Positions 4,299 to 58,897 of a stretch of 64,000 bases of DNA are shown one piece after another; position 1 is the first letter of the stretch, and each line of letters opens with the position of its first letter. A program made the translations under genes and the position numbers. Source of the stretch: a virus; the IMG/VR virus record IMGVR_UViG_3300005337_000019, positions 18,991 through 82,990 of that record; one strand, given 5' to 3'. Below the pieces are notes generated by a model. The model searched no databases. It saw only the letters and a list, made by a program, of their open reading frames with translations, and was not told the DNA's origin.

Positions 4299-4333
4299 TT
4301 GACATGCTAACCGCTAAGCATTACATTATGAGC
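4299..4333 (+). promoter_or_regulatory. class I promoter-operator cassette, copy 1
   Basis: TTGACA 4299, ATGCTAACCGCTAAGCAT 4304-4321, TACATT 4322-4327, ATG 6 nt later. Confidence 0.85.
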
Positions 4334-14054: not shown

Positions 14055-14972
14055 ATGCGTGACCTGCATCTGCGCTCGGGCTGGGCCCATTTCCGCGCAA
14101 CCATGGCTGAGCCTTTCACTCGTCGTCGGTCGTCGTTTCTCGGGGCTCCGCTCCAAGTAGAGGGCGAGCCGGGGAGTGGTGGCGGCGGTGGTGGCGGAAA
14201 CGGAAACGGCGGCGGGGGCGGCGAGGGCAACAACGGCGGCGGCGACGGCGGGGCCGGCGGCGCGGGCGGTGAAGACGAAGCGGCCAAACGTGCCGCGCAG
14301 GACAAAAAGCTCACCGAGGAAGCGGCGGCGTGGCGTCTCAAGTATCGCGGTGCGGAATCCCGCATCAAAGAGCTCGAGGACGCGCACAACGCATCCAAGG
14401 CGGCGCTGGAAGCACAGATCGAGGAGCTGCGTTCGCGCGGCGGCAGCGGCAAGGACACCAACCCCCAGGGTGGAGCTGGCGCGCAGCCGATCGAATCGCA
14501 CCCCGAGTTTCTGAAGATTCAGCGCACCGTCAAAGAGCTCAGCGACAACCTGCGCACCGAGCGCGAAACCCTCGCGAATGAGCGCAAGGCGCTCCGCACC
14601 GAGAAGATTCAGCGCGCGGTTTCCGAAGTCACCGGCGAGGGCAAGTTCCTCATGCAGGGTGTCTTCCGGAAGATGCTCACCGACCGGGTGGACATCGCGA
14701 AGGACGGCGCTGTCGTCCTGAAAGTCCCGAACGAAGTGGGCGGCACGGACGATGTCCCGTTCACGCTGCAGAACGTCCTGAAGTACCGCCCGATCGAGGA
14801 GTTCGACAGCTTCCTGCCGTCGAACGGCTCGGCCGGTTCGGGCTCCGGCGGCGGCAACGGCAACGGCGGCGGCAACGCTTCCGATGGTGTGGACTGGGCG
14901 AAGGTGAACGCCAACGATCTCGATTACATCCAGAAAAACATGACCAAGATTACCGCTGCATTGGGTCGGTAG
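14055..14972 (+). CDS. capsid scaffolding protein
   Basis: GGAGGA SD; Gly-rich N-terminus, EAAAWRLKYR coiled coil, GSGSGGG tail; directly before capsid. Confidence 0.8.
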   Translation: MRDLHLRSGWAHFRATMAEPFTRRRSSFLGAPLQVEGEPGSGGGGGGGNGNGGGGGEGNNGGGDGGAGGAGGEDEAAKRAAQDKKLTEEAAAWRLKYRGAESRIKELEDAHNASKAALEAQIEELRSRGGSGKDTNPQGGAGAQPIESHPEFLKIQRTVKELSDNLRTERETLANERKALRTEKIQRAVSEVTGEGKFLMQGVFRKMLTDRVDIAKDGAVVLKVPNEVGGTDDVPFTLQNVLKYRPIEEFDSFLPSNGSAGSGSGGGNGNGGGNASDGVDWAKVNANDLDYIQKNMTKITAALGR

Positions 14973-25207: not shown

Positions 25208-25223
25208 CGTTCCACGTGGAACA
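25208..25223. other. parS: chromosomal-type parS site
   Basis: CGTTCCACGTGGAACA, 15/16 match to TGTTCCACGTGGAACA; perfect 14-bp palindrome; intergenic. Confidence 0.7.
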
Positions 25224-53900: not shown

Positions 53901-54629
53901 ATGAGCGGTGCACGGCCATGGGAGTCCATTCGCGAGCAGACGCGCGCCGAGCGGCACGCGCGCGAGGTAGGCGTCAAGTTCGACGAGCAGTTGCACCGAT
54001 ACACGATCGGTGACCGCAAGCTGCTGAACGTCACGACCATCCTGAAGCTCGCCGGCTACTACGACTTCTCGCACATCGATCCGATTTACCGAGACCGCGG
54101 CAAGGACGCGCACGCGGCCGTGCACTACTCGATGGATGGCGACCTCGATCGATCGCACCTCGAAACCATCGCCGAAACAGGCGCCTTCGATCTGCGTCCG
54201 TACGTTATTGCCGCCGAGAAATTCATCATGGAAAACGATATCGAAATCGTTCATCCGGAGGCGGTCGTGGTTGCCGCGAACATGGGCTTTGCCGGCAAGG
54301 TTGATGTGTTCGGGTTCATCCGCCGCATGAAAATCCTGTCCCTCATCGATTGGAAGCTCGGTGATCTCATCGACGCGTACGGCGTGCAGCTTGCCGCCTA
54401 CAAAATCGGATGGTGGGAGATGACGCGGGCCGCAACCGGGAAGGGCGAGATGGTCGGGAAGCGGTTCTGCGTGCGCCTCCTGCCCGACGCCACCTATCGC
54501 GTGCGCGAGTACAAGGACAACCGCAACGACGAACGGCGCTTTCTCAGCGCGCTCGACGTGGTGCAGACGCGCATCGAGTACGGCACGCTCAAGCCCGAGG
54601 AGGTATGGCCGGAGGCGCATGCGGCATAA
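53901..54629 (+). CDS. PD-(D/E)XK exonuclease
   Basis: FDEQLHRY...NVTTIL...RGKDAH...FAGKVD...IDWK...QLAAY. Confidence 0.88.
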   Translation: MSGARPWESIREQTRAERHAREVGVKFDEQLHRYTIGDRKLLNVTTILKLAGYYDFSHIDPIYRDRGKDAHAAVHYSMDGDLDRSHLETIAETGAFDLRPYVIAAEKFIMENDIEIVHPEAVVVAANMGFAGKVDVFGFIRRMKILSLIDWKLGDLIDAYGVQLAAYKIGWWEMTRAATGKGEMVGKRFCVRLLPDATYRVREYKDNRNDERRFLSALDVVQTRIEYGTLKPEEVWPEAHAA

Positions 54630-54702
54630 CACATCGGCGGCACGAGTTTCCGCGACCAGTGCCGTCGCCAACTTTCAGCGGAATGAAAGGGGTTCAGGTT
54701 TG

Positions 54703-55296
54703 ATGAATAAAGTCTTCGCAGCACTTCTCGCCGTCGTGGTTCTGATCGTAGTAGCGGCCGGCATCGTTGCCGCCGTGTGGGTCAGCTATTCGAACACCGA
54801 GATTCGTCTTCGCGCGCAGGTCGAGGCGCAGCAGCAATCGAACGAGGCTGTGTTCGACAACACGTGGAAGATCATCGCGCAGCAAGCCGGCGTGTCCTCG
54901 CAGTACAAGGACGCCTTCAAAGAGATTTACCCGGCGCTGATGAACGGTCGCTACGGCAACGCCCGCGGCGGCGCGATGATGTCGTGGATCACCGAGCACA
55001 ATCCCAACTTCGACGCACGGCTCTACGAGAAGGTGATGAATTCGATCGAGGCGCAGCGCACGATTTTCACCACCGAGCAGAAGAAGCTGGTCGACCTCAG
55101 CCGTGAGCAGAAGACGCTCCTGGCGACGTTCCCCGGTTCATTCTTCCTGTCCGGACGCACGCCTACCGCCATCACGATCGTCACGTCCTCGAAAACCGAG
55201 GCTTCCTTCAAATCGGGCAAGGATGACGATGTCGATCTGTTCAAGCACGATTCCACGCCGGCGCCGAGCACCACTTCTGCCGCCGCCTCACGTTGA
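54703..55296 (+). CDS. membrane-anchored LemA-like helical protein
   Basis: N-terminal TM helix, SYSNTEIRLR, ...TFPGSFFL; resembles LemA-type proteins. Confidence 0.55.
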   Translation: MNKVFAALLAVVVLIVVAAGIVAAVWVSYSNTEIRLRAQVEAQQQSNEAVFDNTWKIIAQQAGVSSQYKDAFKEIYPALMNGRYGNARGGAMMSWITEHNPNFDARLYEKVMNSIEAQRTIFTTEQKKLVDLSREQKTLLATFPGSFFLSGRTPTAITIVTSSKTEASFKSGKDDDVDLFKHDSTPAPSTTSAAASR

Positions 55297-55322
55297 TCTA
55301 GAACAATGGAGAGGAGTGCCGC

Positions 55323-56513
55323 ATGTTGATCTGGTTCGCACTCGTGATCCCCGTGCTGTCGGCCGTCGTCTTGCTGATCTTTTGGCGACGATTCGTGACG
55401 TGGTGGGAGCTCGCGATCCCGGTTGCCGCTGCGGCGCTCCTCATCGTCGGTTTCAAAGCCGGCGTCGAGTCATCGCTGACGACGCAGACCGAATACTGGG
55501 GCTCGAGCGTTGCGCGCGCGACATATACCGAGCACTGGGATGAAGAGGTTTCGTGCCGCCACTCGTACAACTGCCGGTGCAAAAAAGATAGCAAGGGCAA
55601 CGAGTCGTGCGACACGTGCTACAGCCACGCGTACGACGTTGACGATCATCCGGAGACGTGGACCGTCGCCGCTACCTCCGGCGAAACCTTTCCGATCGGC
55701 AGCGGCGAGTACTCCCGCCTGACGAGGCAGTTCGGGAACCAAGCGTTTCGCGCGCTGCATCACCACAACGTGCACTCGATCAACGGAAACGCCTACGACA
55801 CCACATGGCCGGGAACGGACGAGACGCTGGAAGCGGTGACCACGGCGCACACGTACGAGAACCGGGTGCAGGCGTCGAACAGCATTTTCCGGTTTCAGGA
55901 CGTGGACCCGAAAGACGTTGCGACGTATGGGCTCTATCAGCATCCCGGCATCAGCAACTACAGCAGCCCGGCTCTCCTCGGTTTCAATTCGCCGGCGGCC
56001 GAACGCGCGCTGCAGGTCATCAATGCGCGCCTCGGCGCGCGCAAACAAGTGCGCGTTTATCTGCTCGTGTTTCGCGACAAGCCGATCGAAGCCGGCGCCC
56101 TGCAACAGCGGTATTGGCAGGGCGGGAACAAAAACGAGTTCGTCATGACGGTCGGCATCGACAAGGCCGGTGCCGTTTTGTGGGCGTTCCCGTTCTCCTG
56201 GAGCGAACGCGAAGGGCTCAAGATCGATGCGCGCAATCACATCATGGAGCAGCCTCGATTCGATCCCGTCGAATATGCGACGTGGTTGCGCCCGCAGATT
56301 CTTCGCCAGTGGCAGCGGAAACGGTTCCGCGATTTCAACTACCTCACCGTTGAGCCTCCGACATGGGCGGTGGTCACGACGTATTTGCTGACCACCATCG
56401 TGACGGTCGTCATCGCGTTTTGGATCGTGAGAAACGATTTCGTCGCGCCTGATGAACAACGGCGCCGGCGCGAGGATGCCGCGACCAGGCGACGCCGCTA
56501 TCCATGGGCGTAG
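55323..56513 (+). CDS. membrane protein with extracytoplasmic Cys motif and TPM-like region
   Basis: two N-terminal TMs and one C-terminal TM; YWQGGNKNEFV. Confidence 0.6.
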   Translation: MLIWFALVIPVLSAVVLLIFWRRFVTWWELAIPVAAAALLIVGFKAGVESSLTTQTEYWGSSVARATYTEHWDEEVSCRHSYNCRCKKDSKGNESCDTCYSHAYDVDDHPETWTVAATSGETFPIGSGEYSRLTRQFGNQAFRALHHHNVHSINGNAYDTTWPGTDETLEAVTTAHTYENRVQASNSIFRFQDVDPKDVATYGLYQHPGISNYSSPALLGFNSPAAERALQVINARLGARKQVRVYLLVFRDKPIEAGALQQRYWQGGNKNEFVMTVGIDKAGAVLWAFPFSWSEREGLKIDARNHIMEQPRFDPVEYATWLRPQILRQWQRKRFRDFNYLTVEPPTWAVVTTYLLTTIVTVVIAFWIVRNDFVAPDEQRRRREDAATRRRRYPWA

Positions 56514-56580: not shown

Positions 56581-57585
56581 ATGACTATTTCCAGCGAAAC
56601 CACCGGTGCTCAAATGGAGATCGTCGTTCCCGAAAAGCTGGCGCACGACGTAAGTGAGCTCGTGCAACGGGCTTCGGAGATCACGATCGCGAGCGACCAG
56701 GACTACGCCGCGGCGGCCGCCTTCCTTAATGAGCTCGGCCGCGGCATCACGCAGATCGAGGATTTCTTCAAGCCGCACAAACAGAAGGCGCGCGCCACAT
56801 GGCAAGGGCTTGTCGACGACGAGAAGGATCGTCTCGCGCCGCTCGAGGCTGCACGGACCATCGTCCGCGACAAAAAGATGAAGCCCTATTACCTCGAGCA
56901 GGAACGGCTGCGTGCAGCCGAGAAGAAACGTCTCGAGGAAGTTGCGCTGAAGCAAGCGGAGGAGCGCAAACAGGCCGAGATCGCACAGGCGAAGAAGGAA
57001 GCCGAAGAGAAGGCGCGCATCGAGATCGAGGCGGCGAACCAGAAGGCGCAACAGGAGAAGGAAGCGAGCGAGCGCCAGGCGAAAGCAATCGAAGCCGACG
57101 CGCTCAAGCGCGCTGATGAGCTATTGGCATCCGGCAAGGCGGATGAGGCGCAACGCGTTCTCGATGACGCGGCCCAACGCCAGCAGAACCTGCGAGATGA
57201 CGCCGAAGAGACGGCCGAAAGGATTCAGCGCGAGGCTGCCGACGAGGCGGAGCGCGTGACCGCCGAGGGCGAGATCATCGCGCAGGACATCGCATCTACT
57301 GCCGTGCATGTGCCGATCGTCAGCATGGCCGCAGCTCCAAAGGCGCGCGGCACGTCGGCCGCCAAAAAGTTCAAGGCAGACCGCGAGACCTACGACAAGC
57401 GCAAGGCTGTGGCCTTCATCGCTGCCGAAGTCGCCCGCGGCAACGTGGCGCTCCTGTCCTGGTTCGATCTCAACTTCGCGAAGATTGACCAGAGCGCGGG
57501 TCAGATGCAGGAGCTTTTCCCGTCGTTCGAAACGTGCGGCATCAAAGTCGGCGAGGACACCACCATCCGCGGGAGCCGAAAGTAA
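56581..57585 (+). CDS. coiled-coil phage protein of recombination modules
   Basis: AAGGA SD; ITIASDQDYAAAA...IEDFFKPHK; long E/A/K-rich coil. Confidence 0.7.
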   Translation: MTISSETTGAQMEIVVPEKLAHDVSELVQRASEITIASDQDYAAAAAFLNELGRGITQIEDFFKPHKQKARATWQGLVDDEKDRLAPLEAARTIVRDKKMKPYYLEQERLRAAEKKRLEEVALKQAEERKQAEIAQAKKEAEEKARIEIEAANQKAQQEKEASERQAKAIEADALKRADELLASGKADEAQRVLDDAAQRQQNLRDDAEETAERIQREAADEAERVTAEGEIIAQDIASTAVHVPIVSMAAAPKARGTSAAKKFKADRETYDKRKAVAFIAAEVARGNVALLSWFDLNFAKIDQSAGQMQELFPSFETCGIKVGEDTTIRGSRK

Positions 57586-57890
57586 TGAGCGTACTTCTCG
57601 CCGCGATCAATCGTGCCCGCCAGGCTCGCGGAAATGACGACAGCGGCATTTTGATCGAGTGCCCCGATGGTTTGGTCGTGGGGGCGACGATCGACGCTCA
57701 CGGGCGCGAGAGTGGCGGCGAGTTCGTGCCGTGCGGGAGACAGGTGTCCTACCGGGGCGCCTGTCCCCGCTGTGGCAGCCGTAGCTGGGCGCCGGCGGGG
57801 CCGGATGAGTCGACGCCTGTCGACCTGAAGGCGAAGCGCGAGGAGCGTGCCGCGCGCAATATTTTGAGGCTCGTGGGGGGCATGGATTGA
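57585..57890 (+). CDS. small Zn-ribbon protein
   Basis: ACPRCGSRSW; TAATG coupling. Confidence 0.6.
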   Translation: MSVLLAAINRARQARGNDDSGILIECPDGLVVGATIDAHGRESGGEFVPCGRQVSYRGACPRCGSRSWAPAGPDESTPVDLKAKREERAARNILRLVGGMD

Positions 57891-57895
57891 TGATC

Positions 57896-58164
57896 GTGGA
57901 AGGCTCGAGCAACGCTGTGGAAAACCTGCGGAATCTCTCCGGATTTCCCGAGTCGCGCCACTCGGCGCAATCGAGGCTGCGGAAAAATGCGGCCTCGATC
58001 CTCAAATTTTCCGCGCTGTTTTCCGCAATTCAAAACCCACCTATCCGACGCAGGGCCATAGCGTTGCCCGAGTTTTCCACAATTCATGCTAACCACTACC
58101 ACTACCACAAGAAAGAGAGACCTGTATTTCAGATGGAACCGGCGACTGAGCAAACTGCGGAAAA
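57896..58164. other. putative DnaA-dependent origin (oriC-like): DnaA-box-like cluster plus trio-like run
   Basis: TGTGGAAAA 57916, TGCGGAATC 57927, TGCGGAAAA 57978, TTTTCCGCG 58007, TTTTCCGCA 58019, TTTTCCACA 58073, TGCGGAAAA 58156; CCA-CTA-CCA-CTA-CCA-CAA at 58093-58110. Confidence 0.55.
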
Positions 58165-58897
58165 CGCACCGCCACCGGTGCCGCGGTGTCGCGGCAAAAT
58201 CATGAAGCCGTGCGACGATTGCCGCGCGGATTTCTTCGGTCTCGGCACGACGCGCTTCTGCGCCGAATGCCGCTACAAGCCTGGCAACCGCAAGCCGGCT
58301 GGGAGGAAACGTTACGTTCCCACGCCTGAGATCGATCGCGTCATCCGGGATGAATTCGCGCCGCACACGCGGGACGGGCGAACAAAGCGCCTGGCGGCGC
58401 AACTCGGGTGGAGCGTGGACGCAGTACAGAAGCGCGCCACTGAGCTCGGCCTCACGGTCAGACCGCGCGTCGCATGGGGGGAAAAGGACACGGCTCTGCT
58501 GGAAAAGTGGGCTGGTCAGCGGTCGCCGGCGTGGATTGCGGAGAACCTTCGCAAGCGTGGATTTCCGGGCCGCACCCGATCGGCCGTCGTGCAAAAAATC
58601 AACAAGCTCGGCCACCTCTCCGCCGTGAAGGAGGGTTACAGCGGAAACGAGTTGATGGTCTGTTTCGGCGTCACCGAGCCGACCGTCAGCGCATGGATTC
58701 GAAAAGGCATGCTGAAGGCGCGCGCATCGGAACACCTGCGCGGCCGCCGGCATCCATGGGTGATCGAGGAAGAGGCCATCGTCGATTTCATCCTCAAAAA
58801 CCCGACAGCATTCCGGCTGCGCGACGTGGATCAGACCTGGTTTCTCGATCTGATCGATGCGTACATGTGCCGCAAAGCGGTGCCGGGGAAAACGTAA
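58133..58897 (+). CDS. Zn-finger plus multiple-HTH DNA-binding protein
   Basis: CDDC...FCAEC; LAAQLGWSVDAVQKRA; FGVTEPTVSAWIRKG. Confidence 0.7.
   Translation: MEPATEQTAENAPPPVPRCRGKIMKPCDDCRADFFGLGTTRFCAECRYKPGNRKPAGRKRYVPTPEIDRVIRDEFAPHTRDGRTKRLAAQLGWSVDAVQKRATELGLTVRPRVAWGEKDTALLEKWAGQRSPAWIAENLRKRGFPGRTRSAVVQKINKLGHLSAVKEGYSGNELMVCFGVTEPTVSAWIRKGMLKARASEHLRGRRHPWVIEEEAIVDFILKNPTAFRLRDVDQTWFLDLIDAYMCRKAVPGKT

Follow-up and report, generated by a model that had tools for sequence, protein, structure and literature searches.

Can a phage carry, and replicate from, a look-alike of its host's chromosomal origin? The question is raised by a short gap between two genes of an uncultured phage, in which an earlier note had proposed a mimic of a bacterial oriC, i.e., DnaA boxes followed by trio-like repeats. 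We analyzed this gap within the window (the whole stretch of 64,000 nucleotides, bases 18991-82990 of an 82,990-bp IMG/VR virus record), within the entire contig, and in comparison with the origins of Acidobacteriota genomes.

The box array and its phage neighborhood

The contig has a GC content of ~64%, is classed as linear in IMG/VR, and has a CheckV completeness of 72%. Its genes include those for terminase, portal, major head, and tail, and the portal is only 22-27% identical to portals of phages of 31-117 kb. DNA and protein searches of the phage collection, IMG/VR, JGI metagenomes, and GTDB found no phage relative nearer than P0002. The oriC look-alike has a length of 245 bp and lies between two phage genes. 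The features of the locus are given below; distances are counted from the last, trio-proximal box, and "hosts" refers to genomes of the probable host order described in the next section.

57534-57890, plus strand: gene upstream of the gap, encoding 118 aa without a family and closing the recombination module
57891-58132, plus strand: noncoding gap of 242 bp; GC3 is flat, and an ORF extension across the gap is not conserved (not kept in the 70%-identical homologue P0002)
57893-58083, no strand: nested inverted repeat with arms 57893-57920 and 58056-58083, 28 nt at 82%
57895-57903, plus strand: weak eighth, outermost box CGTGGAAGG, -178 from the last box
57916-57935, plus strand: tandem pair TGTGGAAAA-CC-TGCGGAATC, leftward boxes, -157 and -146 from the last box
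57978-57986, plus strand: leftward box TGCGGAAAA, -95 (hosts -105/-106)
58007-58027, plus strand: rightward tandem pair TTTTCCGCG-CTG-TTTTCCGCA, -66 and -54 (hosts -77/-78)
58073-58081, plus strand: trio-proximal box TTTTCCACA, inverted, position 0 of the box map
58093-58110, plus strand: trio-like run CCA CTA CCA CTA CCA CAA, bottom strand 3'-GGT GAT...-5'
58109-58138, no strand: least stable 30-mer of the gap, candidate unwinding site, top 0.12% of the contig
58133-58897, plus strand: HTH gene in the position of dnaN in hosts, 254 aa, with a Zn-ribbon, two Myb/GcrA-like HTH domains, and HTH_17
58156-58164, plus strand: seventh box TGCGGAAAA, within codons 8-11 of the HTH gene

Five exact matches to TGYGGAAAA were found in the window, against 0.72 expected by chance, and five or more were reached in 0/100 shuffles. 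All five copies are located within 57916-58164, with none elsewhere in the 82,990-bp contig. Two degenerate copies, TGCGGAATC (57927) and TTTTCCGCG (58007), bring the array to seven boxes, each at the place and in the orientation that the earlier note had given. The array is dominated by the G variant TTTTCCGCA, which forms the second box of the rightward pair (starting at 58019), and the boxes at 57916 and 58073 are identical to TTATCCACA at 8/9 positions. These two matches had also been reported previously, as had the CCA-CTA-CCA-CTA-CCA-CAA run 11 nt past the 58073 box and the A/G-rich tract that follows it, and all were confirmed. The melting tract at 58109-58138 lies directly 3' of the triplets, and its AT-richness is only moderate. 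No repeat family other than the boxes was found, and a promoter scan of the gap detected no sigma-70-type promoter.

A 25-bp inverted repeat (57896-57920/58056-58080) noted earlier proved to be real, with a computed extent of 28 nt (57893-57920/58056-58083). It is made up of the opposed box arrays and a complementary 12-nt spacer. When treated as RNA, the plus strand forms one long nested hairpin (MFE -95.1 kcal/mol, z -6.0), because the left boxes face the right boxes. Imperfect 28-nt terminal inverted repeats and a long hairpin would also suit a dispersed REP, MITE, or IS-end element, which the earlier note had named as a finding that would refute an origin mimic. However, the gap is present as a single copy in the contig, no target-site duplication was seen, and the hairpin is accounted for by the opposed box arrays. 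Furthermore, neither the 401 Acidobacteriota genomes searched nor the 127 from the candidate host order yielded a full-length copy (the true host genome is not included); only matches of 17-49 nt were obtained, and those inspected were chance matches in coding DNA or DnaA-box sites. Five short matches in the 401 genomes were inspected: one lay in genome G088, at the box pair of its dnaA leader, and the other four, obtained by BLAST in G092, G107, G123, and G132, were rejected as chance matches in coding DNA. We regard a dispersed element as hardly credible.

Upstream of the gap, the recombination module (53.9-57.9 kb) contains two exonuclease-like genes, phrog_1383 and phrog_2087. The cassette of phrog_1383 and phrog_2087 (54619-56513) was also seen at 33-48% identity in 13 inspected low-GC viral contigs of 84 kb to ~0.5 Mb, most of which come from one large metagenome and whose neighborhood otherwise shares nothing; phrog_2087 alone has 176 relatives in IMG/VR. 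On the other side, the Zn-ribbon, Myb/GcrA-like HTH, and HTH_17 domains identify the product of 58133-58897 as a DNA-binding protein, and no Pfam family spans its whole length. An assignment of this protein as GcrA was rejected: there was no Pfam GcrA match, only 3/50 family members match GcrA, and one single-domain structural match was obtained. The family comprises 1,109 representatives at E ≤ 0.001, mostly from Acidobacteriota MAGs and high-GC viral contigs. Downstream of the HTH gene lie a RecU-like resolvase gene, a DUF5131 gene, a Dam-type methylase gene, and a Mom-like gene.

Origins of Acidobacteriota and of the probable host order

Pairs of TTTTCCRCA boxes separated by 1-30 nt were searched for in 301 Acidobacteriota genomes, with the reversed pattern as a control. 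The pair was present in 105/301 genomes, with the control near 0, and in only 9/101 Pseudomonadota. Nearly all of the Acidobacteriota matches were tandem pairs with 2-3 nt spacers, and the same spacers occur in the phage pairs at 57916-57935 and 58007-58027. As located by tblastn in the loci of ten genomes (those with clusters and the first listed pairs), the box pairs adjoin dnaA. In the origins that were read, the DnaA box is TTTTCCACA, present in many exact copies in both orientations together with an AT-rich stretch, and the origins end with TTTTCCACA-TTTCCACA-GGCC-(CTA)4-5, i.e., a basal unwinding system. This layout of box pair, GGCC, and (CTA)n settles the orientation: the box reads TTTTCCACA, and the trios read 5'-CTA downstream on the same strand, as the earlier note had assumed. 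Separately, a three-box motif, TTTTCCACA-NN-TGTGGAAAA-NN(N)-TGTGGAAWH, was observed immediately ahead of the dnaA start, in the leader, in seven Acidobacteriota genomes (L142, L150-L154, and L181, of which L150 shows the motif only in part). It resembles a site of autoregulation or a DARS-like element.

The nucleotides flanking the boxes are also shared. C precedes TG in 62/88 host boxes, and C or A follows AAAA; both flanks are found in the phage boxes. Conserved flanks, together with an A7-to-G change by which TTTTCCGCA breaks the CACA end, had been considered as an argument against DnaA. This argument was overturned by the G variant in the host order and by the equal host flanks; since the host boxes carry the same flanks, the flank argument is removed. 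The first hypothesis had been that a phage protein, e.g., the Zn-ribbon/Myb-like/HTH product, uses the repeats as operators or iterons and that their resemblance to DnaA boxes is due to chance, and a multi-HTH DNA-binding protein is indeed encoded directly downstream. It was dropped after ~45 relatives of the HTH gene in viral contigs and MAGs were found without an AT-richer gap or repeat array upstream. In addition, the core, flanks, 2-3 nt tandem spacers, and whole layout match bacterial origins, for which chance is no explanation. The criterion for an iteron-type origin was also not met, as no Rep/O-type initiator gene with cognate repeats was found in the 83 kb of a contig that may be incomplete. 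An operator or iteron function for a phage protein now appears very improbable.

The phage pair TGTGGAAAACCTGCGGAATCTC is identical at 21/22 positions to the box pair in the dnaA leader of G088, which is located just upstream of the dnaA start, and a similar pair, TGTGGAAAA-CC-TGTGGAATC, is present in G407. The order of G088 comprises 127 genomes, including G003, a MAG titled 'Thermoanaerobaculia bacterium', and the best GTDB homologue of the phage HTH protein is also in G003. The MAGs with relatives of the HTH gene are mostly Acidobacteriota and therefore provide a lead to the host. The probable host lineage is the Acidobacteriota order that includes the Thermoanaerobaculia-titled MAG. Cis-elements alone can serve here for predicting the host of an uncultured phage. 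Genomes flagged as unpublished (G490, G436, G491, and G486) were left out of all claims.

In the dnaA-dnaN spacers of the G088 order, the boxes are mostly TTTTCCGCA, and the trio-proximal box was TTTTCCGCA in 12/12 spacers. In the spacer of G088, the trio-proximal box TTTTCCGCA precedes CGGTT, CTA CTG CTA ATA CCA CTA, an A-rich tract, and the dnaN ATG. Global alignment of phage 58063-58145 with this spacer gave a score of 59, compared with 21.9 ± 6.5 (maximum 47) for shuffles. The pattern of TTTTCCRCA, 1-16 nt, CTA, then CCACTA was detected in 17/127 genomes of the order. All loci fetched for the box-CTA-CCACTA pattern (13/13) lie between dnaA and dnaN and have the G-variant box together with mixed CTA/CCA trios. 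The trios of three genomes read as follows.

G448: CTA CTA CCA CTA CCA CTA
G454: CTA CTG CCA CTA CCA CTA
G075: CCA CTA CCA CCA CCA CTA (2/6 canonical)

The block CCACTACCACTA begins 11 nt past the box in both G448 and the phage. Given the G-variant boxes and the CTA/CCA mix in the origins of the host order, the 7/9 boxes and the GAT/GGT alternation are therefore native to the probable host lineage; the degeneracy of the trios, entered as a caveat by the earlier note, is equally seen there. The origin architecture of Acidobacteriota is hereby documented, including a lineage with TTTTCCGCA boxes and CCA-containing trios. Clusters of G-variant boxes were also observed far from dnaA, in L175 (G452:C2:421.7-421.95 kb) and L179 (G464:C1:3209.6 kb), with a Ser/Thr kinase gene and a restriction-modification system as neighbors.

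Box order and orientation are equal in the phage gap and the host spacer, and the distances differ by about one helical turn, as judged from MAFFT alignment A5 and the following box map (zero, trio-proximal box).

Leftward boxes: phage -157, -146, -95; hosts -168, (-156), -146, -106
Rightward boxes: phage -66, -54, 0; hosts -78, 0
ATG of the next gene: phage +60; hosts +63 to +66 (dnaN)

In alignment A5, the weak box CGTGGAAGG (phage -178) is placed opposite the outermost box of the hosts (-168/-169). The left flank of the last box, GTTGCCCGAG in the phage, resembles host GATGCCGAG, and local alignment of the phage gap with host-order spacers gave z values of up to 7.6. Identity to the twelve compared host-order spacers was low outside functional elements. 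The spacer block most conserved among the hosts, GAACTGCTATACTTTCGAAACC, which is the putative dnaN promoter, is not kept in the phage, where a 12-nt gap is present and TATACT is changed to TATCCG. The block GAACTGCTATACTTTCGAAACCTTTGCAG is nearly invariant in origin spacers of the host order (L185-L196 and L170) and lacking in the phage copy; it could represent the promoter of dnaN or a site for another factor.

The collinearity and the similar flanks suggest that the gap descends from a host origin, and phages are able to acquire DNA from their hosts. The gap might accordingly be a passively captured host dnaA-dnaN spacer without a function in the phage. Yet the low identity outside functional elements speaks against such a capture, as does the loss of the most conserved host block while boxes, phasing, and triplets persist. 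Moreover, no coding remnant of dnaA or dnaN is found beside the gap, and a phage-specific inverted duplication of box and spacer has been added. Passive capture is improbable in our judgment. That the boxes and trios were kept while the best-conserved host block was lost argues, by inference, for selection on a DnaA-related function and against a recent inert capture. The claim of a bacterial-oriC mimic is supported structurally by the comparison with real host-order origins. Judged from sequence, the gap is very probably a host-type oriC look-alike, which is inferred to bind host DnaA.

Possible functions of the module in the phage

The basal unwinding system, composed of a DnaA-box pair, a spacer, DnaA-trios, and an AT-rich tract, was defined in Bacillus subtilis incC between dnaA and dnaN (PMC6669920, PMC8287927). 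Its rules require a box with at most two mismatches to the species box or TTATCCACA, a spacer of 0-16 bp, and three or more trios in succession with adenine at the center (3'-NAN-5') (PMC8287927). The box rule is met by the 58073 box TTTTCCACA, which is identical to the Acidobacteriota origin box and matches TTATCCACA at 8/9 positions. The spacer rule is met by the 11 nt to CCA, on the correct side and strand and in the orientation of the host origins, and the requirement for an easily unwound tract beyond the trios is met by 58109-58138. As for the trio rule, the run read in the register of the earlier note has the canonical central base in 2/6 triplets and never in three in a row. TTC-ATG-CTA immediately past the box fits the formal rule, but in another phase, and the two triplets nearest the 58073 box read TGC TAA rather than CTA CTA/CTG.

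In the mechanism that we propose, host DnaA would bind six to seven boxes, three leftward and three rightward, binding being inferred. Starting from the last box (58073), an ATP-dependent DnaA oligomer would grow along the CCA/CTA triplets on one strand (58093-58110). The oligomer would open the tract of low stability (58109-58138) for loading of the helicase and replisome of the host, and the phage would replicate without an initiator of its own. Whether the gap is a DnaA-dependent replication origin of the phage, with firing inferred, seems to us an evenly balanced matter. The best explanation overall, which we hold with slightly more confidence than doubt, is that the gap represents an oriC module of the host type, to which host DnaA binds and from which the phage probably replicates; such a function is inferred and not shown. 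The module is a look-alike of the origin of the probable host, and the phage therefore most likely recruits host DnaA, either for its own replication or to disturb that of the host. The functional inference of the earlier note had named a host-like origin or titration of DnaA; the DnaA-type module is supported, and the choice between origin and DnaA sink remains a matter of inference.

No Bac_DnaA, DnaB_C, DNA_pol_A, Phage_integrase, or ParB_N was found in the 83-kb contig. No initiator, helicase, or polymerase was recognizable, and no replication protein was present among the ~50 ORFs scanned. Given that Bac_DnaA is absent from the contig and that the gap is flanked by phage genes, this is a look-alike on a phage and not a chromosomal origin; the location criterion for a chromosomal oriC (beside dnaA/dnaN) is not met. 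The lack of replication genes that had been stated for the 64 kb extends to the whole contig. The argument from absence remains only an inference because the contig may be incomplete, and an initiator with its own origin is possibly in the missing part. Approximately 28% of the genome may be absent from the contig, the ends of which do not overlap. DNA-modification genes are located at both ends; the ends may therefore be close neighbors and the genome nearer complete than 72%. At the contig start (bases 1-40), a DNA methylase gene begins 33 nt in, and at the 3' end (82960-82990), a 12-nt poly-C run is found just after TTGACA. DnaB, PolA, and DnaA were also absent from 80 loci sharing phrog_2087. 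These loci belong to low-GC phages that share only the two-gene cassette, and their missing replication genes therefore say little here. The GC-skew check proposed previously gave no support for an origin at 58 kb: the cumulative minimum is at 43-44 kb, not 58 kb, although all genes are on one strand.

All evidence for host-type DnaA boxes applies equally to an array that binds host DnaA without firing. Such an array could be a sink, which titrates DnaA away from the host origin in a datA-like manner as the phage multiplies. It could also be a sensor, which links expression of the operon behind the gap (with genes for the HTH regulator, the Holliday-junction resolvase, and others) to host DnaA status, as the dnaA-leader boxes do for dnaA. 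The 21/22 correspondence of the pair at 57916-57935 to the G088 dnaA-leader pair fits this possibility, leader boxes being regulatory, and one box falls within the opening codons of the HTH gene. Clusters of boxes outside oriC in the host-order genomes G452 and G464 and the noncanonical box-proximal triplets point in the same direction. However, a sink or operator needs boxes only, which leaves unexplained the triplet block at the exact host distance and orientation and the melting tract that follows it. The gap also has no detected sigma-70-type promoter, and the putative promoter block of the hosts is lost. We consider binding without firing, which is the foremost alternative, rather unlikely, without dismissing it. 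If the array only binds DnaA, it would serve as a decoy made of DNA or as a means of sensing the host cell cycle. If the origin fires, the virus would hijack the most tightly regulated step of its host, with built-in competition with the host chromosome for DnaA.

With the preferred reading of an oriC module that serves as the phage origin in mind, a second chromosomal-type site of the contig has to be mentioned.

25208-25223, no strand: chromosomal-type parS CGTTCCACGTGGAACA, single in the contig, 14-nt core GTTCCACGTGGAAC, in a stretch of weak coding signal

Sites with exactly the core GTTCCACGTGGAAC are found at a distance of 5-9 kb from the origin in G088, G448, G454, and G075, and the phage parS may belong to the same strategy as the oriC look-alike. 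We suggest tentatively, as no more than a possibility, that the phage is a natural minichromosome on host cis-signals, with an oriC copy fired by host DnaA, a parS handled by host ParB, and no initiator, partition protein, or integrase of its own. The contig also has seven copies of a strong promoter cassette composed of TTGACA, the 18-nt palindrome ATGCTnACCGGTnAGCAT, TACATT, 6 nt, and ATG (window positions 4299, 4842, 6923, 23997 on the minus strand, and 44621; contig positions 14864 and 15215, both on the minus strand). The genes behind it look leaderless. A half-site, ATGCTAACC, is present at 58086-58094, right after the last DnaA box.

Tandem TTTTCCRCA pairs were found in more than 118 IMG/VR contigs, and 17 of the first 80 pair-bearing contigs have at least five exact boxes within 300 bp. 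In the fetched stretches of these 17 contigs (1.6-13.5 kb), there was no dnaA/dnaN, and no proteins were shared with the phage. Dense arrays of 6-11 exact TTTTCCRCA boxes were observed at L287:6064-6270, L275:35-200, L239:19-190, and L262:4250-4492. The phage array is not unique as a class, and host-type DnaA-box arrays may be recurrent in viruses. A scan of viral contigs for the box-plus-CCACTACCAC pattern gave only chance matches in coding DNA. A literature search found no paper on DnaA-trios or a chromosomal-type origin in a phage; one study only ran Ori-Finder on a phage (PMC11512268).

Comparison with known DnaA-dependent systems

Compared with chromosomal basal unwinding systems, the phage parts are in equal order and orientation, directly ahead of a gene start. 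By contrast, the phage module is located between a recombination gene and the HTH gene, with no dnaA/dnaN. It is also without a second box beside the last one and without a GC cluster, and its box-proximal triplets are noncanonical. Real origins have a second box cluster flanking or upstream of dnaA, which is missing in the phage.

The datA and DARS loci are non-origin DnaA-box clusters of E. coli (PMC5742627). The phage array resembles them as a short, oriented DnaA-box cluster that may act through DnaA binding rather than firing. However, datA and DARS are chromosomal and lack a trio/unwinding module, whereas in the phage array the elements on the unwinding side are retained.

Plasmids built in the laboratory to replicate from a cloned oriC are known as oriC minichromosomes. 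As with these, a phage replicon of the proposed type would rely entirely on the DnaA and replisome of the host, without a Rep of its own, and competition with the chromosome for DnaA would be expected. The difference is that minichromosomes are laboratory constructs, whereas the phage is a natural virus, for which such replication is not shown.

Finally, it is textbook knowledge that DnaA boxes can assist the Rep protein of a plasmid or phage. In oriR of the plasmid-prophage P1 and in the iteron plasmids F, pSC101, and RK2, DnaA boxes assist a plasmid-encoded Rep on iterons (PMC4980987). These are likewise phage or plasmid origins that need host DnaA boxes; in contrast, the layout in our phage is chromosomal, and no Rep gene or other iteron was seen. 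A virus with a whole chromosomal-type origin module, consisting of oriented arrays, trios, and a melting tract, and apparently without an initiator, differs from these Rep-assisting boxes.
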